The notes beneath the pieces were generated by a model, which was not told the origin of the DNA, searched no databases, and saw only the letters and a list, made by a program, of their open reading frames with translations. Position numbers and translations under genes: made by a program. From Marsupella aquatica (taxonomy: Eukaryota > Plantae > Marchantiophyta): a stretch of DNA of 64,000 bases. Below, in pieces: positions 31 through 42,669 of this stretch (its first letter is position 1; the number at the start of each line of letters is the position of its first letter). Where the stretch lies: positions 11,339,892 through 11,403,891 of the forward strand of contig OZ316894.1 in the NCBI GenBank assembly GCA_973895155.1. The letters are read 5' to 3'.

Positions 31-3000
31 ATGGACATGACCGGGGGCGTGATTCAGGACCTACCTCCTGGGAAGTCCTCCGCATTGTCACTTGTTTGGA
101 CTCTTAATCAAGCTATCATTCCTTGGGAACGCCTGACAGACTTTAGGGATGGGGAGGGCAGAAGAGATCCTAAATTTGAGACATCTTTTTACATTAGGAC
201 TTCAAAGAAATCAGATTCTGAGAACACAGATTGGGTAGAGTATAAGATATTCTGGTGTTCTTATGGCCCGCAAGAACACAATGTCAATCTATGTGTTCCT
301 CCTCTCCAAGGAACACATCCAAAGTCAGGAATTGGGAGCAGGCCACGTCTATGCAAAAAGAACTTCAACAATCACGCAAAAAGGAATTGTCAATGTCACT
401 TCATTGCAAAGAGATTCAAGATGATCCCTGACGCTATTCAAATCACGTATAGTAATAGGTACAAACTACTTTCTGACTCAAAATGAACTTCTATGACTCT
501 GTTCTTGCGTTCCAATTTGAGTTTTCCTTACTGTTCTGCCACCATGTACTCTTCACATCATAGTAAGTTATTTGCGATATAGTGTGTGTTCTGGCATCAA
601 ACTTCACTAAAACTATGTGATGTTGTTACTGTTCTGTCACCAAACATCACTGAAATTGTGTGTGGTTATTACTGTTCTGGTTGCAGAATCCATTGCAACC
701 TTAGAGGTGACATAGTGCATGGTTCTTGGGAGCATGAAATGGGGCCGCCAACATGGGAGCCAAAGTGTAGTGTTGCTCCATGGCTGACCAACGAGTTGCA
801 AAAACACCTAGAAGACTTGTTGAGGGCAAAGTGGTCTGTCCTTGACATATATGACCTACACTGCCAGTCACAATTTGAGAGGGATGGTGATGATCGTGGC
901 CATAATGTCACTGACATGGAAGTCACACTAAGCTTTGATGGTAGAGACGACCTTTTGTCAAAACAGGACCTGCGAAACCTGAAGAGGAAAATTGACAAAG
1001 AGTTGTGGTTATGGGATGACAATGACCAAGCCTCAATGCGGAAATGGAAATGCCTTTACCCTGAAAGAGTTTTTCTTTCCCATGAGTACTTGGAGGGACC
1101 TCCAGAGCAGGAGTTCATGCTTGGACTCCAATCACCTTGGCAGCTTGCTCAAATGACAAAGTTGTCTCATGGGTCGGTCTTGACCCTGGACTCCACATTT
1201 GCAATTAACGAATATGGGGTCAGTTCTCTTGGTCCCTTTCCTACATTATCTTTTATTCATTTTTGTGATGTTATCGTGTGTTTGAATTACCGTTCTGGTT
1301 GATTTCTATGTTGAATGACATTACTGTTTTGGTTTTTTTTGTATTGACTGACATTACTGTTCTGGCATGTAACCTTAATTACATTTGTTATGATGATAGT
1401 TTCCTTTCTTTACTCTTGTTGCATTTGATGAACACCAAATGGGACTACCCATAGCGTGGTGTATACAACAGTCAGAGTCAGCAGAACATATTGGGTTGTT
1501 TTTACAAGCTATGAAAGATAGAGCCTTGTTGACCAAACCGGATTGGAGTCCAAGTTGTTTCATCATCGACTGCGCTCAGGCTGAAGTTAGTGCCTTACAA
1601 GTAGTGTTTCCTAACATCCCAATATACTTCTGTAGTTGGCATGTCAGAAGGTATGTTTGAAACCACATACCACGGACCATTCTCATGTTTAGTTATCATC
1701 ATCACTTATAGAGTCTTTCTGTTACTGTTCTACCCATTTCACTCACAGGTACTTCCATACAGGGTTTGGAAGGAGAATCTGATCAAGAAGGTTCCCAACA
1801 GAGCCAAGCTCCTAAACATGAATGATGATCTTGGAGATTTAATGTATGCTGAGACTGAGGAAGACATGCAAGCCTTGTGGCATGCCTTCAAAATTAAATA
1901 CAACTCTGAAAAGCTATTTCTAAAGTATTTTGAGGACACTTGGATGTACAGAAGAGGTATGTGGTTTGCTATTTGGGGTATGCCTGGCCATTTTAGTAAA
2001 TTCTTTGTTGTCAACATGTCCATTTGGTCTAAGGTTTTTGTATTGTATTTATATCTTGCCATGTATTTTATTTTTGCAATGTTTTTGTAGCTGTTCTGTA
2101 CTGCACAAGTTTGTGTGCCTTTGTAGCTGTTCTGTATTGCATAATATCCTGTGTCTCTGTAGTTGTGGAATACTTCAGAACTCCGCTTGGATCTCTGGTA
2201 CTTAATGTTCTGGCATGTCTTATATTCCAGCAAAGTGGATGAGGGTTGTTCGATCAATGCCCCGTGCCAACCAGAATACAAATGGTGCAATTGAAGCTTG
2301 GCATTGCACTTTGAAAAAGATGATAAGGAGAGTAATAGGGGCCATTGGAGCACGTCGCCTTGATCGGATTGTGAATGCACTTTTTCAAGTGATGCTTCCA
2401 TTCTTTTGGTACAAAATTTGGTGCAAAGCAAGGGGAAGAGTCATCAACTACAAGAAAGAGGAAATAGTCTTGAATAGTCTCCACAAGGCAGAGCATCGAA
2501 TGAAAGACCATCAGGTCTGTTTTCCTGATCCAACATTGCCCAATCAGGCAATTGTGAAAAGTTTAAAACCTCATGGGAGAGAGTATATTGTGCGCAATAT
2601 ATATTCAAACTTTCCTTCATGCTGTTGTAAGTGGGCTGATGAAGGGAACATGTGCAAGCACCAATTGAAGGCATTGCTAGTGAGAGGTTGTCAAGGTGCT
2701 GTCTTTGTTCAACAACTAGGTACCAGGTTTGGTAGCCTCATGGGTGGCATCTCACATTTGAATGCGGATGAGAACATCCTGACACCACCTGAACATGTAG
2801 AAGTAGAAGGCCAAGTCGAGCCTCATGCGGTTTGTGAAACAATGGAATCTAGCCTTCATGTTTCTGTTCTGCCTAAAGAGAACCCAGAGCGGTCCCTCAG
2901 ACAATCTGTGCAACAGATGTTTGATGAGATTTTGCTCATTGTGGAAGGGGATGCCCGTCTAATAGAGCAAGTATTCCTGGCAACACAACTTACTTTGAAC

Positions 3001-3099
3001 AAAGTGAAGAGCCAAGAACAAACTAAACACCTCTCAATGAAAGACAATATAGGTCCTGTGGATGCTTTTGTTAGGCCTATGGGTCTTACATCCAAGTGA
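31..3099 (+). CDS. MULE-type DDE transposase with SWIM zinc finger (5 exons, ~757 aa)
   Basis: GT-AG exons 31-458, 687-1218, 1400-1650, 1763-1956, 2231-3099 join in one frame (2274 nt). Motifs: WCSYGP, CQCHF, LDSTF (D), FIIDC (D), FCSWH, AIEAWH (E), SWIM CCCKWADEGNMCKH. The TGA at 3097 may be premature, since degenerate coding-like sequence continues to ~3550. Confidence 0.88.
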
Positions 3100-3780: not shown

Positions 3781-4290
3781 GCCAGAACAATCACACAAAC
3801 ACGAGAAACAATCATGGGTCACAAACGCGGGGCTGCCAGAACACTAAAACAAGTGCAACAGTACCCTTATACTTGTGCAAACACGGGGTTGCCAAAAGAG
3901 TCACATGAAGATGACAGCCCTTATATTTGGGCAATCGCAGGGCTGCCAGAACAGTCACACAAACACAAAAACCCTTGTAGCTAGGCAAACACGAGGCTGC
4001 CAGAACAGTCACATGAAGATGGTAGCCCTATATCTGGGCAATCGCAGGGCTGCCAAAACAGTCACACGAACACAAAAACCCGTGTAGCTAGGAAAACACG
4101 GGGTTGCCAGAACAATCACACAAAGATGACAACCCTTATATCTGGGCAATTGCAGGGCTGCCAGAACAGTCACATGAACACGTACGACAACTCTTGTATT
4201 CATTGGGCAAATGCACGGCTACCAGAACAGTCACACAAATGTATAAAATGTAGTGGTGCAAAAGAACAATTGCCAGAACAGTCACACAAA
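3781..4290. repeat. ~54-bp tandem repeat, 10 units with dimeric (~108-bp) higher order
   Basis: GCCAGAACAGTCACA-type core at 3781, 3835, 3891, 3945, 3999, 4052, 4106, 4160, 4221, 4272. It lies between the 3' ends of the two MULE genes. Confidence 0.9.
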
Positions 4291-11100: not shown

Positions 11101-14100
11101 GGTACTCACTTTGGGTGCTTCCAAGTTGAAAGTTGCTCACTCACTCAGAGTATTGAATTCAGGATGGAGAGTGGGATTTTTGCAAAAAATTACAAGTCTT
11201 TGAATGTCATGGAATTGTTTGTTGTTGGCCTGACATCACATGCTCCTTCCTACTAACAACTTCTTTAGGTTGACCTAGGTCTGCCATGGAACCTTGCGAC
11301 TAGGAGAGATAGTATCAGGCCCCCATAGCCAGAACCTGCTTCATGGAGTCTTGGAAATACTGGAAGGAGGACATACCATTTGCACAATGTCTCACGAGAA
11401 AGTGATACACCAGGCGGCACGTGGGACGTGGTACAGTTTGACTGTGCTACATCCTTGTTGGAGGCTGTGTCCTCATGCAAAACCAGGAGGCTCCTGCTCA
11501 TGTGAGAGCCAATCCCACCAATGGGTTACATATAGATTCTTCGTCCCTTCTAAGGAGGTAGGAAAGCTTCATAGAGGTTACTTAATATTACATTAAGAGA
11601 TGTACAGGACTCCCACTATGGTAGCCCCTCCAACCATTTATTTTGAACCATTTTGTACACATAACTGGTCTACTGGCTGGATTGCCATCCATCACAACAA
11701 TAGCTTGATACGTAACTTCTTCTTCCCTAGTTCCTAATTTATAAAGAGGAAGGAAAAGCTTATATTTTTTGGGTAATGTGACATTGAGAAGCCCCCAGAA
11801 TCCCAAAATCCTTTGCAAAAGCACAGGTCTGTGTATGTGCAAAGCAATCAGGCAGGCGCATCAAGAAAACTGAGAGGAATTCACCTGGAGTCCTCACCAG
11901 CACCTTGAGCGTTTCTGAGCTTGACCACACAAGAATGTAAAAGCAGATCACCTTATGATCCAGAGAGCATCTCTTATGGTTACTGGGTTGGTCTACTATG
12001 ACACTATGTTGACCAAACCCAGTAATGTTGCAAAAAAAGGCAACCCCAATAGGTTACTGGGTTTTTTGGTTAATATGAGCTACTCTATCGTGCATGGGTT
12101 TTTCTTGTTATATATACATTAGCTGCTCTATGGCGCATTGACTGAATACGAGTTTAGTTCCTAGGTTCTCCAAGATCTAATGATTAGTATCCAACTCTGC
12201 CCATTTCAGGAGGTACTGAAAAACTCAGAAAGAATTGGCCTTGCTTTTTGACACGACATTGCTGCTGTATACAATAGACTAAAACAGGAACATCTTTATG
12301 CTATATTTAATTTAATGTAAACAGTACAACAACTACTGTAGTGCACACCATAGAAAATGCTCTCACCCCTTGTTGCATGTGTTGCAGGACTTTACTAGAT
12401 CGATTGTTTGGCTTTGGTTGAATGTATTGTCCTACATTTCCTGCAGGGTTGCTGCGCCATAGCACTGACTTGCATGAGGCCGAGGCCATTAGGCCAAGGC
12501 CAAGTAGACTACCGCGGCTGTAATTGAAGTCATCATTCTATCTGTTTGGGGAAGACTTTCCTGCCATGCAGAGCATAATTCTTTCTCTTCAAAATTTGAC
12601 TTTATTAATCCCAAACAGGAGGTAACAGAATGTCGTTCACTGAATTACAGTCCACAACGGATTTGTCTTGCAGACCTGCTGGCTTGCAATCCCTCCTCAC
12701 CAGTTGGAGACTTCGAGTCCAATACTCCAGTCCACTTGTCTGCAACTTGTGAAATGGGTTCTGGACTGTCATGTGACTCGTCATGTGCACTTTCATGATA
12801 CAGAATAGTGAGTGCTACCTGGCGTCAATATTATCCGTCCGTCAGTGCAGGACACAGCCCTCTGATCACGAACCTGTCGCCAGTGAGTTAGTACTTGAAT
12901 GCTGCATGCAGGATGCAGAAGAGTGAAGACTTTTTATACAAGATCGATCAAGCTTACTTGACGAGTTGTGGCAGCTATGAAGAAGCATTACTAATCTACA
13001 CTGTAGTAGCTATGCAGCTACAGTTAATACAGTAACTTGCCCCTGTGTTCCACCCACACCTTTTCTGCGCAAGAACTTGATGGGGATGTATGGCAATGTT
13101 TGAACTAGGGTTTGGCAGTGTTTGAAAAAACATGTTTGCAACCATGCTGGACTCCTCTCCTGTTTCTGCTCTGCCTGGACCTCCCCTTATTATGTGCACA
13201 ATATTAGCACACTGCCAATGAACAATCAATACTGGGAGATATATACTGTAGTGTCCCAAAGGCAGGAGATAGAAAGAAAAGCCTCGGCACCTGAAGCTCA
13301 AGATTAAAACACTTAGGAGGGTCCTGAAGAGGAATTTGTCTAGAAGCCCTACAACAACTCCCAGCTTTTACAAAATGTGCAGCTGGTTTCATTGGGGAGG
13401 CCTCCCCTCCTCTCTTTTGGAAGCCTCATAGCACCTTATGACAAAATCCATTTAAGGACCAACAAAAAGGAAAGTGGTGAACAATTATCTGGTGGTAATG
13501 GACTTCGAGCACAAAAAGAACACGCACCCAAATAAATTAATACTAAGTAGACTATGTTGTTGTTCTGGTCATGGACAACCTAGGATGTGCTTCCACAAAG
13601 GTGTGTGTTTATTTAAAGCTTGGAAGAAAGGAACGCAAGTGTCAACAACATGCCAAGCGTGAGCTCATTATTCACCTAAACTTGGTGATTGTTTGATTAA
13701 ATGATTGGTCTTCTATTTTGTCTCCTCTCCTCTTTGGTGGGTACCCAAGCTATAGTGTTCTTTACTTAGAGAAATTCAACTGGTATTATCAATAGTTGCC
13801 CCTTACAGGGAAGGGCAAAAGCATCCCTCCATATTTCACTCTCAAGAGAAGTATTGGGGCAGCGACAAACTTAGAAAATTTGTTGGCTGAATTCATCATA
13901 TCACTGGCTTTTGGCTTCAAGTGTTCTCGTCCAGAGATGCTCTTAGAGAGTAATATGCAACCAAAGGTCTTGCCTGTGGTAAAACCAAAGGGAAAGACCC
14001 AACACTAATGCCCTGACTAATGCACACAGTTCACACACACAAGCCAACCAGCCAAAGTCCCTCGTGTGGTAATATACTGATACTTTGTTCTCTTACCTTT

Positions 14101-21905: not shown

Positions 21906-24249
21906 TAGGGTGCCCAATTCTGGGATACACAGTGCTATATTACTTGGACTTTGTTCAGGCCGCCTTAGCTTGAAAGGGTTATTGTCATAGCTTCAATTAT
22001 TGATTAAGGGTCCACAGGTAGTCAATATCTGAGTGGGTAATTTTTGGGATTTATTTATGGTCTTTCAGCAAAACAGCTGAGAAACCCATTCTTAATGAGA
22101 TCAACAAACTTTTGGGCAAGGCTTGCTTGAAGGCAGGTTTCCCTTGGGAAATTAGCGGCCCCACTTCCTCCCCCTCTTCCCCTTGGTCTTTGCCTGCATG
22201 CAATTTCTAATGTGTTTTTCTTGGCTTTTGTTTTTCAAAGTGTCAGGGCAAGTGTCTTCATTTCCCTTTCTTGGGGAGCATTACTGAACCATGAGGATTT
22301 TGTCCTTCTAATTGAAAAGCCTTGTCACATTTAATGAAAAATAAATCTTGACAGAAATCAAATAAATATGGGGCAAGCGTCCTCACTTTGTTGCATATTA
22401 AAGCAAGGACAAAAACCTTCATACCCGCCTTCACAACATCCTTAGATAGAAGAGAACCTTTCAAACCTCATCCTACAAGGGGCTGCTAGTAACCTAACCG
22501 AGCAACCAACAACTGACTTCTTCAATTTACAACAGCAGACAAAGTTGAATACAGGGCTAATATGCCCCCAACATATCCTTGAGTGAGCCAAGACTCTTTC
22601 CAAGTTGCTTAATTGACCCCCTATGGACTGTTTCTTACTTAATCAACGGGGATGTTCAGATCTGCCCCAATCGACCCCCTCTCACAATTTCTTACATATA
22701 GTTCTTGGGAAGAGCAGTATCTCGAGCAGTATAGGGAGACTTTACCACAGTGAACTCTAATTACCTATCATATGAGCCCGTGGTCTTGTCCGTGGTATGC
22801 TGCAATTATGTCGAGATAAGAGTCGGCCCACAATCCACGCGTGATAAGATCGAATGACATCGGACGTAGTCGTGTATACTTTTGTATTTGAAGACAAAAC
22901 TAGTATGGTCTTCAAACATTTAGGGGTCTCCAGCAGGGTCTCCATTTGTATGAAGTTTAGAGGTAATAAACCCATAATGTTCATATATAGTTGCTTTGTT
23001 GACAATCTTTATCAGTGCATTCCACTAGAGACAAATCTATGTTTGGATCTCACTCACAGAAAATGCTTTGCTGGATATCTTTGACACAGATTAATTTGCT
23101 AAATTGGCACACTTGCGTTCAAAAATTATTAAAATTTCTCAAAATGTTTCCAATCTTTATACTGCAAGACCATTATGACAGCCATGAATCCAAACACTTG
23201 TAAAATTCTCCAAAATCTTTGAAGTGTTTGTCGTTTTGAATTTGAGTTGCCTTTGCTTCCACTACGAGCAATTGAACTCAGACACTTTGCACTATGTACT
23301 CTCAACAAAGTGTATTCACTAGAATAAACATATCAACAACAATTGATGACAACATCAAATTCTTACGCACTTTCTTATAGGCTTTCCCATCAGTTATCCT
23401 GGCCACATCCTAAACCCATGTGCAATTGCGTCTTGTTTTTGGGCACGCTCTATCACTATAACACAATGACCCTCTTTTGCGAAACACCCTCCCTCGCATG
23501 CAACAAAGGAAATAATATCAGCCAACTCCTTGTTGCGAAACGCCGCGCATCTCAACATCGTCGCTCTTTTCCATGCCCACACCTTTGCAACCGGACCTTT
23601 GCAAGAGCTTCGCACTTTGCAACTGTTTAAACATCGCACACAAGTGCGATGCCATACCTCTCGCAATATTTGTGAAGCAGGCACTATGGGCGCGTTTGCG
23701 ATTCGACGAGCAACACTAGTAAATGTAGCGATGCTGAAATCATTGCCAGATTGCGATATAGGACACATTGGTAGATTGCGAGCCATACTATCTCTCCATA
23801 CTGCGATACGTTTATGTTCGCTCCATTTGAAAAATTAAACACATCTGAAATGTGCGGAAACTGTGTGTTCGCATATTTGCGATTTAAATAATGTCGCAAA
23901 CGTTGCGAGGATGAGTGTTTAGGAAGTTTTGCGATGGTTGTGTCTTGGCTATTTGAGATGACAGCTGGTTCTCAAGGGTTTTGCAAAAGGTATTTTTGAA
24001 GTATTAGGGTATAATAGGGTTTAGTGGTTTAGGGAGACAATTCATACAGTTGAAGGAGGGAGAAAAGGGATGTAGGTAGACCGGAATGCCGCAATTAAAA
24101 TGGCATTATTCAAAAAGTACAAAAGTTACAAAATGGAAGGGTAAGAACCCTTAGCTAAAAGTTGCATGTCCATGCTAATCCCTATACATGTGAACTACCT
24201 AAGTCTCTAGGGTAATCTACGCACCTATCTAGATAGAGCTAGAAAGGAG

Positions 24250-26300
24250 AGTTCATGCCCCTCCTTGACTTCTTCCCCTTGGCCTTCTCCTTGCCCTTGC
24301 GTGCTCTTTGAGGGGGACCGGGGCCTCCTCCTCCTCTTGGTCTCCCTCCTCATCCTCATCCCCATCACCATCCCCATTCCCATCCCCTACCGCACTACCA
24401 CTCGCAGCACCAGTGGAGTGTGCTGATGCAAATGACAGCTCTCCAGTGCTAGTTGGCCTGACTCGACTAGCAGGAGCAGTGCTCCCCTCCCCTGTCCCCT
24501 CCTCATCCTCATCGCTACTATCACCCTCAGTATGGGAGTCACCATCATCATCCGGTCTCTGTTACATTAGCAAACCAGCCATGCATTAGTCATATAGAAC
24601 CTTACAATTCAGTGAATGACATAAGAGGGAATTTTTCATAAATGCAATCAACACATTAACCTGAAAATTAACGGTCACCAATAATTGATCAACTTGCTGA
24701 AAGAGATGCTCCTTCCCATGTTTATGGCCCACCTCCATCTCAGCCGCTGTGATCTTCCTCTTGTACCTCTTGTACTAACCAAAACAAAAACCGACACAAT
24801 TGGTCAAAACCAAGCAATAACGGCAAGCCAAAATGCCTTAAAACAATTAGAGGGGTTAATTAGGTGCTGGTGGGGTTGGGGCTTAGGTTGGGGGTGGTTT
24901 TACAAGGGTGGCATGGGGGCTTACAACCCTCAAACAACACTTGAACGTTTTGAAATTTTCAAAAATTCAATTTTTTTGAATTTTCCAAGGCTCCAGCTTT
25001 GCAAACGTAAGGGAAAACTAGGTTGCAAAAGTGATTGAGATGGGCGTGGCTTTGCAAGGGCATTGCAAAACTATTTCCAAAAAAGTGAATAACAAGGTTT
25101 GCAAAGCGACGCGCATCGCCAATGCTTTGCAAACTCTTTTATGACGAAAAGTCGAAAGGGAAGAAAATGTACGTGACCTAATCTAACACAACAACTCCAA
25201 TTGGAAGTACTTGGTGCCACAGCAGAAAAGAGTTGGGGCATTGCAGGTGTGTTGGAATAGAAATTGGAGGAGTAAGAAGTCAAGAGAGGAGAGGGCGATG
25301 CACTCACAAATGCTGCTTTGAGGCCGGGGAGGCCACCTTGACCAAGCCTGTGGGTGATGTTGGGCTTGTCTCGGACTCTCTCAGCTGCCTTCAGGAACTT
25401 GTTGGGTGGATCTCCCACTTCTGCTACAACCTGCTGCAATTGGGCCACCTTCTGCTCCATCATCTTCAGGTCACGGTCAGACTTCCCGGGCCTTTGTCAA
25501 CTTCTCTGTAAATTCATTCAGGACCCTGGCTGCTTTCAACTTCACCTTCGTGGCGTAGAAGGCCTACCAGATATCTTCTGAGAACTGTAGCAGCCTCCCC
25601 AAATTCCTGTACTCAGGACTCCAGATCTCTCAGGTGAGCTCTGATCTTCATCCTGTCATGGTATCGTGCTTGTGACATGGAATTTGAGATTTTATCAGTA
25701 AGCCATTGTGAATCCATCTCTCCTCCATTTTGGAATGCATCTTTCACCTGATTGATCACTCGCTTCTGCTCTGCCTTGGAGAGAGTGCTCGACTCGACTC
25801 CTCTTGCAAAATTTGTGGACACAATGTGTCTGATTGTGCTCTTGGCCCCATTGTAAGCAAGCTCTGTGGGAATTCCCTCATCCTCTAATGTGATCAGAGG
25901 CAGCTTCCTCCTTGCCTCCTCCTTCTTTCTCTGCTCCTCCCTCTGTTTCCTGATCAAGTCTCTCTCATCTTTCCTCCTCTTCTTTTCCAAGGCTTGAGGG
26001 GAGAGTACTCCAGCCTGAGCTCTCTCATCCCTCTTTCGCTTCTTCTCAGCGGCCTTCTGCTTGGCTGTCCTCCTTTCTTCCTCCTCTCTTGCTGCTTTCC
26101 CTGCACTGAGACCAGATTGCAAGGCCTGGCCCAATAATGCACTCAACCATGCAAGCCCTGCTGGAGAGGTGAAATCAATCTTACTCAACTGCGCAACCGA
26201 GAAATGGTCATCCACCATCTTTGGAAGTCGATCCTCCTCCTCTTGGTTGCCTCCGCTGCTGCCAAAAGCTCCTCCATCACCTCGATCCAGTTCCCCCTCC
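24250..26300 (-). pseudogene. CACTA accessory TnpA/PTTA (Transposase_24)-like gene, disrupted
   Basis: ORF 25613-26539 (charged coiled coil) continues through a frameshift and stops into ...NITHRLGQGG (PTTA-like H-x-x-G motif), then a small exon at ~24660-24775 and an acidic last exon at ~24570-24250. Start codon uncertain. Confidence 0.6.
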
Positions 26301-26619
26301 GCTTGCCATCGCTCCTCCCTTGCCTGTGCAGCTCTCTCCCAAGGCCCGCAAGAAATGGATCTGCCTTGTCCGCGCTCGGCAAATGATAAGGACAATAGAG
26401 TTAGGGTTTGCGAAGTCATTCTCATCGCAGTTTGTGGTGTTTCTACCTTCTCAACCAGCTTTGCAAACGCTATCTTTGCAAAGAATACAACTTCACAAAC
26501 GTGTTTGCTATTGGGTTTGCAAAAACCCCCATCTCGCATGTGTATTTTCTGTGAGCAGGGATACTAAGAGGGGTAATAAACATTAAATTTGGTACAAGTA
26601 ATTCATTGGATGTGATCAT

Positions 26620-26960
26620 ATAAGGGTTGGGGGGTTAAAAGTGCTGACATTGGAGGGTAAGAGGAGGGGTCTTATGTTACGGCTTTTGGGTTTGGCCTGG
26701 TTGGGGGGGAGTGTTATTTCAGAAGGTTGGGGCTTATATTGGAAGGTAAGAGGCGGGGATTTATATTTTGGCTTTTGGGTTTTGCCTGGTTGGGAGGGTT
26801 TTTATTTTATGAAGGTTGGGCTTAGATTGGAGGGTAATATGAGGTGTTTTATGTTTTGGGTTTGGCCAGGGGATTTCATTTTATGAATGTTTGGCTTATA
26901 TGTATTGGAGTAAGAGGAGGTGTTTTATATTTTGGCTTTTTGGGTTTAGGCCAACTTAGG
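26620..26960. repeat. Degenerate ~70-bp tandem repeat x~5 between the divergent CACTA genes
   Basis: Recurring GGTTGGGCTTA.ATTGGA.GGTAAGAGG..G...TTTATATTTTGGCTTTTGGGTTT. Confidence 0.7.
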
Positions 26961-27556
26961 AGGGAAAGACAGGTTCTATTTTCATGGACACTTGGCTTAA
27001 TTTTATGGTTACTTATGAGGGCAAGTTCTAAGAGGTTTTTATGCTAACAATTGAGGAGAAAACCCATGTAATCATGATACAGCCCAGGGACATCACTACT
27101 TCCTCAACTTTTGTCTAATGCATATGCATTGTGGAAACCCGGGTATCTAAAAGGTATAACATGTATGTAGTGTTGTTAGTGGAGATTTTTCATAAACCTT
27201 GCCATTTTTTGTTTTGCAAGAATATATAATTATATATGTGTAACTTATGTTTGGGGTTCCACAACTTGAGAGATGCTAATGACTATCCAAAACTTACATT
27301 TTGTTTCCAGTATTTTCCTTCTACTTCTAGATTTGGCTCATGTTCATTGAGCCACACGACCTATAGGCACTATTGAGCCCGGGTCTCATTCAGGTAATTC
27401 ACTAACCTAATTCAGGGCTTAGACCATTACAATTTTCCCAAGGGTGACAATGTGATATTTTTGTGCATGAAACTTTCCTTTGGGTTTCATGCTAAACAAA
27501 AAAGGGTTTTTGTAGTTTAGTTTTAGGATATTTTTTGGCCGAGAGGGATTCTAATC

Positions 27557-28740
27557 ATGCCCTACATGCAATGTAATGTGGCAGTGGATATGTCCTCCTC
27601 CTCTGAACTATCCAGTAGTGAGTACTCCTCCTCCGATGATGTACCCCCTCCTCCTCAACCTGAGGTTACCGGTCCTCGTGGTCCTCCCTGGAGACTTTGT
27701 GAGTGCACCAGATGTGTGGGCCAAATTTCTCAAAAATCTTATATGTGTGCTCAACATATTGAGAGGTATGGACGTCACAGGGGTCTTACTCCGGGGGCTT
27801 CTTCATCCCATATGGTACGTGGATTTCAATTGTTTGCCATTTTTTCCTCATATTTCATAAGTGAATCAATGTTTACACATATGTTTTTTGTGGGTTTTTG
27901 CATGGAATAGGGATCCAGTATGCGTAGACCGGTGACACCACCACCCTATGTCCCATCACAAGGAGTTTTAGATGCTATAGGCAATGCACTTTCACAAGCC
28001 TTGGGTGTAGGGATGAGTACCAATCATGGGACTAAAGAGGAACAGCCTCATGTGCCCACTGAGACAGGAAGACCCCGGTCCAGGTCCCAGTCCAAGAGGA
28101 GGCCACAAGCACCCAATGACCCATCAAGAACACTAGTTGAGGGTAGGTGGGGCATTTGTTCATTCACTAGCAAGTGTGCCTCTATCATCAAAGATTGGGA
28201 TCCTATGACTCTTGGCTTGCCTTATTTTCCCAGTTATGATGAGGAGATTGTGGTTTGGGGTAGACGTTGGATTGTGAAAGCTTCCACACTTGTAGAGAGA
28301 CACGGATATGGAGTATTTTCTTGTGAGGATATCATCATGGATGATGGGAGTGGGTCAAGTATTTGTGGTAGAGAGGGTCCTACTTTGCTCCCATACGGTG
28401 GACCCATCTACAAGAGAAGACACTGGAACATGATCCTTGCACAACATCCTGAGTGGAAAACATATGCCCTAGAGATGGATACTTTTCATGGTAGCACTAG
28501 AAGGTATAGTGAGCAGCGGGTGATAGACGTGATCCTGTACGTAATGGGAATATTGTTGGCTTTATAAATAGTACTGTGGGGACTCGACCCAAGCGTAGGG
28601 CCAATTGTCAGTGGGTTTTTACTGATGGCCCAATGCTGGCACCATATGAAACGACATATCATAAGGACCATTGCTTAGTTCTTGCCACTAGGACTATTAG
28701 AGCTGAAGATGAATTATTCACACACTATGAGTGGGATTAG
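27557..28740 (+). pseudogene. CACTA-encoded SET-domain protein (lysine methyltransferase-like) with an N-terminal transposase-associated Zn motif; one 1-bp frameshift
   Basis: Exon 1 27557-27814 (CECTRC..C..HI..YG), intron GTACGT..AATAG, exon 2 27911-28740. SET motifs: VKASTL..HGYGVF, LPYGG, ID[G]DPVRNGNIVGFINS, NCQW, LVLATRTIRAEDELFTHYEW*. Frameshift at ~28529. Confidence 0.8.
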
Positions 28741-28988
28741 GGAGCCATGTCATACATCCTCTTGTACCTTGTGTGGACTTCACACTTATCATTATATACA
28801 TGTCCTCTGGCCTCATTTTGGAGTAGTATAATTTTGGTGTGGCCCTTCACTTAAGTTCTTAATGTGAATGCATGCATTCAATCCTTAAAACTGATTGTTA
28901 ATTTGTGTTGAATGAATGGTCTGAAGTCTGTTTTTGTTGTACCTGGTGAAATATACATCAAGAGGTTTTTTGGTTGTGATTTGTGTAG

Positions 28989-31900
28989 AATGTGCAACCA
29001 TCTCAACAAATGTTACCACGAAGGTTGAGAGCAACATATCGGGAGATGGGCATGCCAGAAGAGGGAGAACCATCAGAGAGTGATTCCTCATCAAGTAATG
29101 ATGTAAATGATCATGGTGATGAGGAAGCAACACCTCAGACTGATGACCAGGTCATGCATGACCAGGACAGAGCCATGGATGACTTCATGGTTGATTGATT
29201 TGGTGCTGCTGTTGAAGATGGTGTCCCTGACATTAGTGTTGAAGAAGCTGCCCCCCAAAATGACCCATGACCACAACATACTCCAGAGGGACAACAACAA
29301 TGGAAGGAGGTTGAGGAACATGCCCGGACACCTATCTTTGAGGGTGCTCGGTTGAGTCATTTGTCAGCCATATTGGGGTTGTTGAACATTCAGGCCAAAC
29401 ATAAGGCAAGCAATTCTATGTTATCAGACATATTTGAATATTGTCATGACTTGATGTTACCCTTGGAGAATGTGTTGCCTGGAACTTGGAAGGATGCAAA
29501 GAAGATTCTCTCATCCATTGGCATGGATTACCATATCATTCATGTCTGTGTGAATGATTGCATATTATTTCATGGGGACAAAGCCCATATGACAGAATGC
29601 ACAGTATGTCATGAGCCACGGTATGACCCAAACATGCTAACTGGGAAGGCGCCAAGAAAAGCAGTTCGTTGGTTCCCCATCATTCTTCGCTTGTTGCACA
29701 TGTATAGATGTTCTGACTTGGCCGAGTTGATGGTATGGCACAAGAAGCATTGTTCGGAGCCCGGTGTGATACGATTACCAGTTGACTCTCCTGCTCATAA
29801 ACATGTGGAGTCAACATGGCCAATTTCCAGCCAGATTTTGAGCGTGACCCTCTACATGTGCAACTTGGGTTGGCATCAGATGGGGTTAGCCCTCATTCAC
29901 TTGGAGGGAAGGGGAGACCTACATCAGTTTGGCCAGTGGTTCTCATGAATAATTACAACCTTCCACCATGGTTGTCCATGAAAAAGGGCTTTTTATTGCT
30001 ATCTTTGATTATCCCAAGGCGAAAGAAGGTGACGAACATGGACACCTATTTGGCATTAGTGGTTGAGGAACTCCAAAAATTATGGGATGGAATATGGGCA
30101 TATGACAGTCGAAAGACTACAGGGGGTACCCCACGGGTTTTTAAACTAAAAGGGGTTTGTATGTGGACCATGCATGACTACCCAAGTAAGAACTATGAAA
30201 CTACAACACTTTTTTGTTTACATCCAACATGATATGATATGGATGTTATCCCCTCATTTCCATGTGCTAATTCTACATTATGTGTGTCTATATGACCAGG
30301 ATTTGGCTTTGTGAGTGGGTTGCAAACCCAAGGCTACAAGGCTTGCTCCACTTGTGGCCCAAGTCTTGGTGATATAGCCAAGTACTCATCACACCTTCAC
30401 AAGATTGTTTATCTTGGGCATACAAAGTTTCTGCCAATGGGCCATCAGATGAGGTTTGACCCACTACTATTTTCCTCCATTGATATGCCCTTTGTTGATG
30501 AGCGTGATATACCAAAGCCAACAAATTTTGCACATTGGAAAGACTTGGCTGATAGTGGCAAACCCGAAGGATCCCATGCAATTTGAGGGTAGCGGGTTGA
30601 CTAGATGGAGTATATTAACCACTTTGCCTTATTGGGGAGAGTTGAAGATCCGCCATCTATTAGACCCCATGCACATTGAGGGAAATGTGGGAAAGGCTTT
30701 GATAAAGGCTTTCTATGGAGAAAAGGACACTAACTTCAGGGAGGCTTGTGAGTATCTTGAGATGCATCGAGATGTATGGGTCACAATTGATCCTATCACA
30801 TGGATAGAACATCGACCTTCAGCCCCATGGGTGCTTCCTGTTGGCCAGAGAAGGGAGTTTAGGAATCGTATAGGAGGCATATGGTTTCCTACTGGTTATG
30901 GTGCCAATCTCTGGAAGGCCTTTCGGATGGAGGACAATCATAAGTGGCCAATGTATCTCAAGACGCATGACTATCATCGGTTATTGCAGCATATATTGCC
31001 CATGGCCATAATAGGTTTGGCAAGTTCAGAAGTGCAAGATGCCATTTGGTCATTGGGAAAACTATTGAGATGGGTATGTTCTAAGGAGATGTACTGTGAA
31101 GAGATCCCTGGAATGGAGGTACTGGCAGCAGAGGTGGTATGCAAGTTAGAAAAGGCCCTTCCTCCTTCCTTTTTTGATTGCCAAGTGCATTTACTCGTTC
31201 ATCTTGTTCATGAGGTGGCCATTGCTGGTCCTGTGCATTGTCGGTGGATGTATTGGTTGGAACGATACATGGCAGTATTAAAGGGTTATGTATGTAACCG
31301 GGCACGGGTTGAGGGAAGCATGGCTACAGGATACTTGGCAGTAGAGAGTATGTTCTATTGCAGTAACATATTGGCCACAATTGATTGTACCTCTCCCCGT
31401 ACTTGGGTAGAGGCTCCAGAGGGAAGATGAGGAGGATCGTTTAACAGGTGCTATCAAAACCCGCATGTTGACACCAGTGGAGTTGAAACAACTAACCACA
31501 TTCATGTTGAGTAACAACACTATCATGGAAGAATGAAGGGATTTCTATGAGGATGCCAAAAGTACTAGTAGAAGACCAAGGATCTTTCCAACGTACCATG
31601 ACTACATGAAGGAGAAGTTGGTTGAGGTGGATGACATGGTAGCGAGGGGAGAGAATGTATTACATTTTCCAGCTATCACAGATGACGTCCGTACCATTAT
31701 TCATGGTCCCTTGAGAATGGTTACAACAAGGACGGCAATGTGGACACAAGGGCGGGCACAAGGGAGACATTTCAGGTTATTTCCAAGTACCTTAGTAACC
31801 TTTCATCTATGGTGATTTTAATTTATGTGTAATACAAACACATATATTGAAGAGACAATTTTTTGGCATGTGATATTAATTGTTATATATTTATGCCTAT

Positions 31901-32425
31901 TTTTGTAACATGTCCTTATGGTTTGATGGATTTTAGGGTTTCTTCCCTTGATGAGAAGAGGGGTCGTACCTTTGATTGTGGGTTTCAAGGACAATTCTCT
32001 TAAGATTCCCGCAACAATCCCCATGACACAAATATTATTCGAGATATTGTGCCACATTATGGAAAGATAGAGGAGATCCTAGTGATATCTTATGATGCAC
32101 AATCAAAGTTTGAAGAGTATGTCTTCAAGTGCAAGTGGTTTCAAAGTGAACCTTGTAGGTAACAATCCCACCGTGCTTCAAGATGAGTGTGGATTTACAC
32201 GGCTAAAGACATCTGCCACTAGTTTCCAGCCATCTCATTGGCAAACATCAGAGCTGTTCACTTTTCCAAGTCATGTGGAATAATGTTTCTATATTCCATA
32301 CCCCCCAAACCCAGAGGAATGGTCACTTGTCATCACATATGTGCCACAATCTCATTCAGTTGTTGGGGAAAAGCCAGATATTCTGGTTGTGTCCCAACCT
32401 GAAGAGAATGAGGACCAAGTTTGAG
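28989..32425 (+). pseudogene. CACTA TnpD/Tnp2 transposase (Transposase_21, DUF4218-like, DUF4216-like), decayed
   Basis: ARTPIFEG..LSHLS, IHVCVNDCILF, LGLASDG, WPVVL..YNLPPW, TMHDYP, LDPMHIEGNV, LKTHDYH, VHLLVHL..E...GPVHCRWMYWLERY, DECGF. Several frameshifts (~29198, ~29820, ~30570, ~31425) and in-frame stops. Confidence 0.92.
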
Positions 32426-32689
32426 GGGTATATGTTATGTGGATATATAGTTAGATTTGAACATATGAGGATCTCTCTTCTTGGTTGGAGAAATATGTGT
32501 TTCTAAATTATTAATAAATTTATGTTTGCCCAAATCAATCTTGTAAGTATATCAATTTTAAATGTGACTTGTTTACATCTTCCATCCCCACGGTCCCATG
32601 TACACTCCCACACCTTTTGGTACACTTTATGAAAAGAAAACTCATGTCGCTTGTAGTCATTCCTCCTCGTAGCTTTCCTTCTCCCACCC

Positions 32690-33145
32690 CCTAGCCTTTC
32701 TCTCTAGTACTTGTACCCACCTCCCTCCTCCCCTTGTCTCAACCCCTTTCTTTTTAAAACCTATACATTCCCTCAATTGTTTTCCACCTTTCACTGTCCC
32801 CAACCTATGCTCCTCCCTCCTTGGCTTGTCCCCCTCCTAAACCTATACCTTCGACCCTCCCTCTCTCCTCCCTCCTTTCCTTTTCCCTCCCTAAACTGTA
32901 GGTAGGTACGCTCCCTCCTCCCTCATTTCCTTGTGCACCCTAAACCTCCCTCCTCCCTTCGTTCCTTGTCCGCCCTTAAGTCAACCCTTCCTCCTCCTTT
33001 TCTTCCTAAAGTGTACCTCCCTAAAACTGTTTGTACCTCCTCCGGGCTCCTCCCTCCTCCGGGCTCCTCCCTCCTCCGGGCTCCTCCCTCCTCTCTCCTC
33101 TCTCCTTGACCCTCCTTCCTCCATTCCTTGTCCCATGCCCTTTCT
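32690..33145. repeat. CT-rich low-complexity tract inside the CACTA right arm
   Basis: CCTCCTCC runs and (CTCCTCCGGGCTCCTCC) repeats. Confidence 0.7.
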
Positions 33146-36100
33146 AAATCTGACAAACCCCAAAACCAATTTTCCAAACCATTTTGCGAACCCCCACCCA
33201 TCTCAACCTCATGGCTAAATTAGCGATTCCCATCTCATCGCTAGATCCCATCCCAATAACATCGCTACATTCCGAAACAACGCGCATCTCAACTTTCCGA
33301 AACTAAAACCTTCTCTAAAAAGAACCACTGAGGCACCATGATTTTGCGAGCCACCCCATATTGCAATGTGGCAATTCCCTAAGTTTTGCTGTATTGCGAT
33401 CAATTTTGCTTCGCACGCCGCTTTCCGACCACATAAGTATCGCACTGTTATCGATTCATTCGGCGTCGCAACTTGTTTGCAAAACGGTAAACATCGCTAT
33501 TACATAGAATGCTCAAAGGTTCAGAAACATTTTGCGAGATGTTTGATTTCGCAAATATTTGCGAAGAGGTTTGTGTCGCAAACAGTGGTTGCGATGGTTT
33601 TAGTTTCGCAGTTTGTTTGCATCGCAAGATGAGCGATGAACGGTGCTTCGCGGTGTGTTAATCCCCTTGTAAATGACCTTCGCAAAAATGGCAAATATGT
33701 AGTAGTGTATCTTGTAGTGATAAAATGTCACATTAAAGAATGTCCACTTCAAGTAGATCCCCCTCTATGCCAAAGATGCACAATGACATCAAAATCTCCA
33801 ACATTGATATCCCTAAGTGTACCTCACACCACTACAATGTCATCTAGATTGCATGCAAACTCTAACGAAAAGAGACTGAGCTTCCCAATAAACCCCAATA
33901 CAATAGATTCCCCCAAACCACATGACCAATAAAAAGCATCATGACAGAATCTGAAACAATGAACATTTGGACCAAGTTATGTGAGGACAATTCAATAATG
34001 AACATCTGAAGACATAACACGTATTGTCTTCACATCATTTCTGAAATCCTTGATCATTGCCGTCATGGCACGGCCGACCCTAAATCAAGCATTTGACGGT
34101 TTGGTTAAGTCGCTTGCACCCACGGACAGGTTCAGGTAGACTGCAATTACAGTACATGGCATGTCATGAACCATAAACTATCAAAGGGGGTTGATTGGGT
34201 AACAAACATACTTTGGGGGGTCGATTGGGGCAAATTTGAACATAGGGGGTTGATTAAACCGGAAACAGTCCAAAGGGGGTTGATTAAGCATATACCTCCT
34301 TCTAAATAGCTTCCACAAATTAGACTTGTCACCTTATGTATTGGTCTGGCTTTTCTTAACTACTGTTGTTTAGGGTTGGCCACATTCCTTGCAATATGTG
34401 TGCTCTTGTAGATAATTTGTGTGTCGCTCCTCACTCAATTTGCCTGTCTGATTTTTAAGTCTTCTTATCCATGTTTGACCGAATCTCTCTAGCCAACTTG
34501 CATATCTGATTTTTATGTCTTCTTGTCCATGTTTGACCAGATATTAACTCTCTTGACTACGATTCACTACAACTACAGTAGTATGCTATGCTCTTTCCGA
34601 AAAATATGCTGTGGTTTAGGGATTGCAGTTACGGTGTGCCATGTGCACCTCACTGTGGTGATAGTTTTAATCAATGATTGTAACTGTAGTGCTGTGTGTG
34701 TGAGTTGTGGGGGGAGGCAAAAGGCCACGGCACAAAGCCCAATACTTTAAAAGAGGCAAACGTCAAAAAGCGACTGTAGTGCTTTTATATATTGCAAAAA
34801 AGAATTAGTGCAAACCATAATGCCGTGTCTCATTTAGAAAACCTTATATGGTTGCTCCAACTTTAAGCAACCTTATGGTATTAAAAAGCTTTTAGAATTA
34901 TTGCATCCAGATAAACCAGAAATAGCAATTTTCTTCAAGATAACGAAAGGTGCGAGGATAGGGAAAAAGAAAGTGTGTGACTTGTCTTTTAGTGGTTTGG
35001 GCTAAAACAAATGTTGATGTTAAGAAGAATAATAAATCATTCCTCTTAGAGTCATGAACCACCTTAAAGCAAAAATTAACTTGGTACCTGTGCCCCCTCA
35101 AAAAGATTATGATATTAAGAAGAGTAATCAATCGTTCCCTTTAGAGTCAGGGATGGATTTTTATGTACAACCATAAAGCAAGTTTTGAGTGACTTGGTAC
35201 CTGTGCCCTCTCGTCACTTTGCTTCACAAAGAGTTGGGCTCACTTTTAAAGCCCTCCTCACATGTCATTTTTCTATTAGACAAGTGTTCAGCCTCTAAAC
35301 GATTATGAATATTTTCAAAATAGTTGTGGGCCTTTCATGATGTACTTCTCACATAATGACTTCAGTTACGGAGACATAAGTTACTCAAAACCATAAAGTT
35401 AGGAAACAAAATTGTGAAGATTAGTCAAAAGTGGAGGGTTGGCACTGTTGTGAAGCCTTTCTCTTTCACCCTCTATAGTACAAAGAGATAGTGGGGTATC
35501 TCTCAGACGTGTACTAAATGTCAGCTAAATAGTACTTGTGAACAAGGGTATATAAAATAAATATAAGGCTAAGGAGGGTTCTAGGAGAAGAAAGAAAATT
35601 AAAGCATTACTAGGGGGCAAACACAATTTTCAAGTCAAATACAAAACAAAAATCTCAATGAGAGAGAGTAACCTGAGTAGAGTCTTGAACAAGGTATCAC
35701 CTGATAAATCGAGGCCAAAGCCAGAGAACGGAGCCAACCCACAATAGGACCTCATCTTGAAGGAAGCACAGGACTACCAAGATACATAGGGCAGTACAAA
35801 GCATCCATAGCCACTTTGGCCTAGTTGCCAGCTCAGCTGGCAAGGCCTACCTCTGACCAGCTAATGTCAAGTTCAATTGATACGCAACACTACAGCTCTT
35901 GTGTTGACACACCTTTGGTGTGGCAGTGGGTTCCAGTATACAACTTACATGAGTTGTGCTCCAAACCCTGTCATGGGGATTTGGAGTGTTATGCATCTGC
36001 GTTTCTTTTAGTATTGTCTGTGAAAAATTAGAACAACAGGAAAATAGAAAATGGGGTTTTCCCCCTACAGGCAAGCCTGTTTTGTGTCTCATGAGTGGCT

Positions 36101-41400: not shown

Positions 41401-41796
41401 CAACAGTTGGTAGACAGAACATAGAGTGAAGCACAGACTTCGAGGTAATCACAGAAGGAGGAGTGCCAGCCTTGCATTGAGCAGGTGGGTGTTGTTTTGC
41501 AGTAGAGAGCGAGCAAGAGAGATGTTGTAGTTGTTGCTCTGTACAAAAGAAGAACGGCAGGGAACGAGAGAGAGAACGAGAGAGAGGCTTTGGAGAATCA
41601 GAGGACCGTGCATTGCTTGCTGGGTCTCTAGGGGGAAATCGTTTTTCAGCGAGTTACATGGTGCAGGGGCGAGGACGGAAAATCTGGTGTCTGTGGATTG
41701 CAGACAGAGAGAGTGAGAGAGGTCCGAGGAGGAGAAAGTATCGATATTATTGTGGTTTGACTACTGCTGCTAGTACTACGACGACGTCGAGAAATC

Positions 41797-42669
41797 ATGC
41801 CCCCGATGGATTCGTCGGCGTCACTATACTTCGATAGCTCCTGGATGATGGATGACACCTACCCGGATTTATTCGATGAGAAAGGGGAAACTGACCTCTT
41901 CTCAAGACAGGCCATGATCGCCACCAGTTTCGCAAACCCGAGCAACAGTAGCGAATCGTGTATGTCGAAAGTTGAGAAGGTGGTAGGCGGCGTTTGTGTC
42001 AGCCCTTCGCAGTGTATGGCTGATATCAATGCTGCGATAAGTACTGCTGGCTGCTTCTCAACGAATCCCTTGCTCTACGACGCTCTCCCAGCCCCGAGCA
42101 ACAGCGGCGAATCGTGTATGTCTAAAGTTGAGCAGGTATGCGGCGTCGTTGGTGGCAGCACTCAGCAGCACATTATGGCCGCTATCAATGTCGCGCTAAA
42201 TTCTGGTGCGGCAGACAAATCGATTCCTGCATTGAGGGAAAGTGCTATGGCGGAGCAATTTGCTCAGACCGAAATGTGGAAGGCTCGGGGTCCCGGAGGA
42301 TTTGATATGAACCTTGTGGCGAACAGTAGGCCGAAACGACGTAATGTGAAAATTTCCAAGGATCCGCAAAGTGTGGCTGCCAGGCATCGGAGAGAGAGGA
42401 TTAGTGACAGGATTCGTATTCTTCAAAGGCTGGTACCCGGCGGCACGAAGATGGACACTGCTTCCATGCTGGACGAGGCCATTCATTACGTGAAGTTTCT
42501 CAAGGCACAATTACATAGCCTTGAGAAGGCCAGCAATACACACAGTACTAGTTTCGATTCTCGCCTGGCTTTCGCGGCAAGCTCATTGTACCGTAATGGT
42601 AGCATGGCAGGGGTACCTCACAGCACGCTGGGGATTGATTACTCACCAATGCAAAAGCACGTACAGTAG
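41797..42669 (+). CDS. HEC: HECATE/INDEHISCENT-like bHLH transcription factor (subfamily VIIIb), intronless, 290 aa
   Basis: [59 protein letters not shown] is the VIIIb signature. Start is ATG 41797 or 41806. Confidence 0.95.

Follow-up and report, generated by a model that had tools for sequence, protein, structure and literature searches.

Can one coding exon of a transposon serve two proteins, being joined by alternative splicing either to a SET-domain exon or to the transposase? The question is posed by a locus in a stretch of DNA of 64,000 nucleotides (the window, in which all coordinates are given), where an open reading frame running from 27557 to G27814 (258 nt) and encoding a Cys/His motif meets a GT at 27815 in phase 0, and where a SET-domain exon and then the exons of a transposase follow. 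The original prediction placed a donor at 27815 and acceptors opening exons at 27911 and 28989, all in phase 0, and the sequence bears this out: the AG at 27909-27910 (acceptor 1) opens the SET frame at 27911, after a 96-nt intron that ends in an in-frame TAG, and the AG at 28987-28988 (acceptor 2) is followed, from 28989 on, by N-V-Q-P-S-Q-Q-M in the frame of the transposase. The comparisons described below show that this layout of Cys/His exon, SET exon and transposase is a real, conserved feature, and make alternative splicing likely.

The setting is a CACTA (En/Spm) transposon. CACTA begins at 23454 and TAGTG runs up to 33707, with degenerate inner TIR bases, and the 3-nt target-site duplication TAT stands on either side. 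Contigs of three public runs join 23450 to 33708, skipping 10,257 nt (10,254 + 3), and it is this empty site, joined in all three, that fixes both the element ends and the duplication; the same three runs cover empty sites and introns and hence behave as DNA, and none of the 11 joints listed for them within 27560-29200 coincides with either predicted splice junction, which speaks neither for nor against them. The ends, the 3-nt duplication, the transposase domains PF02992 and PF13960 and the subterminal repeats together identify 23454-33707 as a CACTA element. The window copy is dead, because its transposase carries stops at 29196 and 29268 as well as frameshifts (near 29825, 30570 and 31425) and its SET exon has lost one nucleotide near 28528-28530, where sister copies have the extra base.

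The element also holds a conserved gene in divergent orientation, on the minus strand, which has no Pfam match and is possibly a TnpA-like accessory gene, the counterpart of TnpA. Between the two divergent genes lie three to four degenerate tandem units of ~88 nt each (26643-26947). An acidic ORF on the minus strand (24253-24561) is without a match in the 67 related loci. Outside the element, inverted repeats occur at 22606-22679 and 34216-34290, and since the flanks are deeply covered and hold empty sites, the CACTA element probably sits inside another repeat. Elsewhere in the window are a single-exon bHLH gene (41761-42669; PF00010), probably a host gene, and two long ORFs (583-3096), one with a weak SWIM match (E 0.05), which are probably a Mutator-like transposase fragment.

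Table 1. The CACTA element, its genes and its predicted splice units, in window coordinates
Feature	Position	Strand	Particulars
CACTA (En/Spm) element, decayed copy	23454..33707	+	10,254 bp; CACTA...TAGTG ends; TAT target duplication; empty-site joint
Left subterminal region, clustered TTGC(G/A)A repeats	23454..24000	.	sequence; clusters at 23500-24000
Divergently oriented conserved gene, main exon	25616..26236	-	further exon ~25290-25487; ~70% identity to most of 67 loci
83-nt exon, CAG/...CAG/GTA	27311..27393	+	stops in all three frames; putative 5'-untranslated exon
Cys/His exon (exon 1 of the original prediction)	27585..27814	+	acceptor 27585; start 27590; Ser/acidic tract; C-x-C-x2-C-x13-H-x4-G; phase-0 donor 27815
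Putative short intron to SET exon	27815..27910	+	96 nt; 31% GC, 46% T; public gene models n=32
Putative long intron skipping SET exon	27815..28988	+	1,174 nt; 980-1,064 nt in 8 related loci
SET-domain exon with own stop	27911..28740	+	PF00856; 1-nt deletion near 28528-28530 in window copy
CACTA transposase exons	28989..32424	+	PF02992 E 5e-29; PF13960 E 4e-32; putative introns 30186-30299, 31776-31936
Right subterminal region, same short TTGC(G/A)A repeats	33180..33707	.	sequence; clusters at 33000-34000

The Cys/His exon is coding. Against ten loci its core gives pS 0.52-0.70 and pN 0.10-0.15, a contrast that is lost in shifted frames and that marks purifying selection. Its read-through tail is not conserved; as the exon codes and the tail is unconserved, it is therefore spliced to at least one downstream exon. 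It had been taken for the first exon, beginning at 27557, and in both respects the picture has to be revised. The ATG at 27557 is not conserved among related loci, whereas that at 27590 is, and five bases upstream of this start the exon has an acceptor of its own at 27585 (AG in 49 of the 61 loci that could be matched there, 6 of the 67 being unmatched). Ahead of it stands the 83-nt exon, which keeps that length in 41 of 46 measured loci and also, counted by eye, in locus L042; its acceptor is conserved, and its donor is GT in 55 of 61 loci. A coding role for this exon was rejected, there being stops in all frames. On these signals the unit extends further upstream, and the Cys/His exon is the first of its exons to code, not the first of all. 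The exact length of the 83-nt exon and a palindrome within it, CCTATAGG, are kept in three lineages. The window shares another possible donor, at 27154 (27153/27154), with L042 and L046, and the segment is absent from L001, L022 and L023.

Searched against 1.84 billion representatives, the Cys/His exon gave 20 matches; of these, 19 appear to be this exon or a portion of it, and not one of the 20 continues into a transposase. The window exon shares 74-75% identity with liverwort models, 65-66% with two Sphagnum models and 59% with a third liverwort model; the host is probably a bryophyte. In its distant homologs unrelated sequence takes over close to the same position, several of them reading Q-V there, which fits a CAG/GT donor.

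How well are the splice signals themselves preserved? For the 67 loci carrying the exon that were fetched, each site was counted only over the loci that reach it. The donor GT at 27815 is present in 52 of 52 loci reaching the exon end, and conservation of both acceptors, as the original prediction anticipated, was found as well: the SET acceptor is AG in 29 of 33 loci (AA in the other four), and the transposase acceptor is TAG in all 9, always in frame with the downstream Met. Because 66 of the 67 loci form one close peat-moss-like family, these counts amount to about three independent lineages, namely the window, the peat-moss-like family and L042, the last of which ends before acceptor 2. 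The first Met follows its acceptor by 9, 9 and 15 nt on the SET side and by 21 nt on the transposase side (18 in L017, through a 3-nt deletion), all multiples of three. The segment 28741-29012 provides an internal control, in that only one of its eight AGs, that at 28987, is conserved (9/9, against 0/9 for each of the others).

Similarity to divergent relatives stops at 27821, just past the donor, and restarts at 28986, which is the TAG of acceptor 2 and not the Met (blastn with L046; records 8 and 22). Among the conserved phase-0 GTs, 27815 has the best consensus score. Two other routes were considered and rejected. One is a donor in the spacer that lies beyond the stop of the SET exon: none of the 25 GTs there occurs in more than three of nine loci, though the spacer aligns poorly. 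The other is read-through of the short intron, which would meet the in-frame TAG; that intron measures 101-121 nt in relatives. Between 27574 and 32378 the window is 70-74% identical to L046 at the DNA level, with the short intron still alignable at 59% and a SET dS of ~0.8. If the host is a liverwort, this divergence is low for the moss-liverwort split, and horizontal transfer may on that account have taken place.

On the transposase side, codon-level constraint is absent from the 21 nt that separate acceptor 2 from the Met at 29010 (pS 0.39, pN 0.32 on 6 codons), whereas the Met and the next 15 codons are near-invariant (pN 0-0.08); these figures leave out L042, whose contig ends before the transposase. 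A further transposase, P0148, also keeps P-S-Q-E ahead of its Met. Peat-moss-like transposases contain an extra insertion, probably an intron (L046 ~13100-13235, L044 ~4015-4170), which the window copy does not have near 30895.

Typical CACTA transposases have an N-terminal Cys/His motif. The transposase exon here starts without such a motif of the type found in P0154, a Cannabis transposase that bears PF13963, and the question arises of whether the Cys/His exon could supply it. The original prediction likened the exon to the transposase-associated domain, and the likeness holds for spacing and fails for score. C-x-C-x2-C-x13-H-x4-G spacing is found in 20 of 21 family rows and is that of P0154. 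Scanning with Pfam, by comparison, did not confirm the domain: the window exon has no Pfam match at E<=10, PF13963 matches three of seven aligned exon members (best E 0.068), and it matches five of 20 proteins at 12.8-15.2 bits (one, P0172, is probably unrelated), against a gathering cut-off of 27.7 bits. These weak matches all lie over profile positions 31-63, the Cys/His part. In the reverse direction, hhalign of the exon against P0154 returned a probability of 0.9%, and the exon's own profile, from which P0161 and P0164 (truncated) and P0172 (unrelated) were left out, did not score P0154 above shuffles. By sequence, then, the exon resembles PF13963 in spacing only, below the cut-off. We read it as a diverged N-terminal finger of the transposase, with predicted zinc binding; the Atlas offers a lead at 0.76 for this finger and nothing beyond.

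The SET exon is likewise maintained: against ten loci pS is 0.45-0.52 and pN 0.15-0.18, shifted frames lose the contrast, and purifying selection can be stated plainly. In the window, PF00856 matches the frameshifted SET tail weakly (E 0.005). Of four full-length homologs, three pass the PF00856 cut-off of 22.4 bits (P0002, 22.9; P0022, 26.7; P0081, 28.6), and P0003 falls just under it at 21.7. The Atlas neighbours of the domain are SET clusters, one of them from giant viruses at 0.96, which is a lead and not an origin; searches for relatives found none in viral contigs (0 of 44 candidates) or in prokaryote genomes (0 of 26). Named homologs, among 43 matches, all come from Sphagnum species and the liverwort Calypogeia fissa. 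The SET cluster of P0002 has 360 member sequences, many annotated as Sphagnum proteins. Sequence searches yielded no solved-structure relative, and two AlphaFold models had a low mean pLDDT (34.6 and 42.1), the second giving nothing in Foldseek at E<=0.001; both were disregarded. The cofactor and catalytic motifs of SET domains are G-x-G, N-H-S and E-L-x-x-x-Y; across 64 sequences GYG is kept in 63, the Asn in 64 and the final Tyr in 64. In every one of the 64 another residue stands in place of the N-H-S His, and because of this the predicted methyltransferase activity is not assured. PR-type SET domains likewise do without this His.

Public gene models offer another view of the junctions. Among 187 stored proteins, 70 match the exon pattern, comprising 36 read-through ORFs and 34 spliced gene models. 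The spliced models enter the SET exon in frame in 32 cases and out of frame in two, and none of the 34 joins the exon directly to the transposase. In four public models (P0059, P0063, P0108 and P0113) the transposase exon is reached from within SET, by junctions that differ and of which one uses acceptor 2. The SET part of P0003 runs for 112 residues without a Met. Such models weigh little, because gene finders tend to take the nearest exon.

What arrangement best accounts for these observations? That a shared exon leads to either SET or the transposase, as originally proposed, survives as the best reading of the conservation, set against the silence of the gene models on a direct junction to the transposase. 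We consider it reasonably likely that one Cys/His coding exon is spliced alternatively to the SET exon or, skipping SET, to the transposase. This reading is supported by the invariant donor, the largely conserved AG and invariant TAG of the two acceptors, the frame-keeping distances and the breaks in similarity at 27821 and 28986. Support comes also from the lack of a conserved GT in the spacer, the top score of 27815, the Q-V ends and the 32 of 34 models that use junction 1, and from a transposase exon without a Cys/His motif beside an exon that has the P0154 spacing and weak PF13963 matches. It is weakened because no model runs from finger to transposase, because the 21 nt before the transposase Met carry no codon constraint, and because both downstream exons carry a conserved Met close to where they begin and could be spliced from an upstream non-coding exon with a strong donor; the sub-threshold PF13963 scores, the non-significant reverse tests and the SET His replaced throughout weaken it further. 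Considered one by one, the finger-transposase junction is very probably used and the finger-SET junction probably so, with the use of both slightly less probable than the latter.

Finger-less products spliced from the upstream non-coding exon would be a real alternative, above all for SET. The finger could belong to the transposase only, with SET nested in its intron and produced without a finger, either by joining the 83-nt exon to acceptor 1 or from a start of its own, its Met lying about four codons in. A Met is indeed present 4-6 codons past acceptor 1 in the window, in the peat-moss-like loci, in L042 and in four of eight models checked, and the 83-nt exon has a strong conserved donor. 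Nonetheless, wherever the stretch from acceptor 1 to the SET frame varies in length, phase 0 is kept; P0003 lacks an early Met; no strong acceptor lies closer to the donor than acceptor 1; and 32 models, predictions though they are, use the finger-SET junction. We regard a nested, finger-less SET as rather unlikely. The converse, in which the finger serves SET only and an upstream non-coding exon is spliced to the transposase, whose translation starts from a Met of its own (29010), would explain why constraint begins at that Met and its 15 following codons and not in the 7 codons before, and why no public model joins finger and transposase. It would leave unexplained, however, that all 9 loci keep acceptor 2 in frame, even the one that has lost 3 nt, and it would deprive the transposase of the N-terminal Cys/His motif seen in P0154, which makes it improbable. 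Least probable is a single finger-SET-transposase chimera, for which a donor within the SET exon would be joined to acceptor 2. The four models that pass from SET to the transposase exon point that way, as do phase-0 GTs at 28520 and 28678, yet the four differ in their junction, the two GTs are Val codons with weaker consensus scores, and such splicing would cut away the invariant final strand of SET, whose end is the conserved stop.

If the finger exon is shared by alternative splicing, as we favor, a single pre-mRNA would run from an upstream promoter, via non-coding exons, to the finger exon. Splicing to the near acceptor would then yield a finger-SET protein of ~345 aa, and splicing to the far acceptor a finger-transposase, restoring the N-terminal Cys/His motif; competition between the two acceptors would decide which is made. 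The likeliest history would be that a SET gene was captured by the transposase gene, inside its first coding intron. As for a role, the likeliest would be that the finger binds element DNA or its protein complex and so brings the methyltransferase there. Such steering of SET to the element would be the plainest reason for sharing the finger, and we put it forward tentatively. More doubtful again is the fuller scheme of a self-targeted histone methyltransferase, in which the finger by which the transposase would recognise the element, placed on a captured SET domain, would lead the enzyme to mark copies of the element itself, with acceptor choice switching between chromatin writing and jumping.

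Comparison with known systems begins with maize En/Spm, in which the first exon, common to both products, does not code and an intron of tnpA contains the transposase frames. At the present locus, by contrast, the partner is a SET-domain protein and not TnpA, and it lies in an intron of the transposase gene, with which it would share a coding exon. What the two would have in common is a CACTA element that makes a transposase and an accessory protein from one unit by alternative splicing, as the available text of one source describes for TnpA and TnpD of maize En/Spm and of Arabidopsis EN/SPM3 and EN/SPM7 (PMC13547354). A SET domain carried by an element of the EnSpm/CACTA superfamily also has a precedent in PAG2 of red-algal Plavaka, where a DNA-adenine-methylase is fused to SET (bioRxiv 10.1101/2025.02.11.637652). 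As far as the accessible part of that account goes, PAG2 is an accessory gene besides the transposase locus; here a methylase domain is missing, the element belongs to a land plant, and the transposase gene encloses SET. Transposon-borne SET-domain genes are further known from HarbingerS, oomycete MuDR and Helitron families, as cited in PMC12730594 and bioRxiv 10.1101/2025.02.11.637652; these belong to other superfamilies, and an exon shared with the transposase is not mentioned in the portions of those texts available to us. The anti-silencing protein VANC of VANDAL elements may be likened to the finger-SET protein in proposed logic, as an element-encoded protein altering the chromatin of its own copies, but VANC is a separate MuDR gene that induces hypomethylation (PMC12730594 and bioRxiv 10.1101/2025.02.11.637652, in the parts available), whereas here the likeness follows from our reading of the gene. 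In the openly accessible literature searched, we found no description of a bryophyte CACTA element with SET or of a shared coding exon, and the accessible text of PMC4158355, PMC9946827 and PMC11982613 makes no mention of a bryophyte CACTA-SET family. Transposon-borne SET genes are thus already known, and a coding exon shared with the transposase was not found in print within that scope.

To our knowledge, transposon-borne SET genes are known only from sequence. A SET protein sharing the N-terminal finger of the transposase would, if true, provide both a concrete targeting route and a splice switch. The window contributes a further lineage that keeps the same splice signals, with an exon 1 nearer to liverwort models, and the transposon appears from these homologies to be common to mosses and liverworts. 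CACTA elements are among the most abundant repeat classes of peat moss, at 6.8% of the genome according to the available part of PMC9946827. Since the SET cluster of P0002 holds 360 sequences, many of them entered under Sphagnum, transposon copies may swell the number of host SET genes counted in peat moss.
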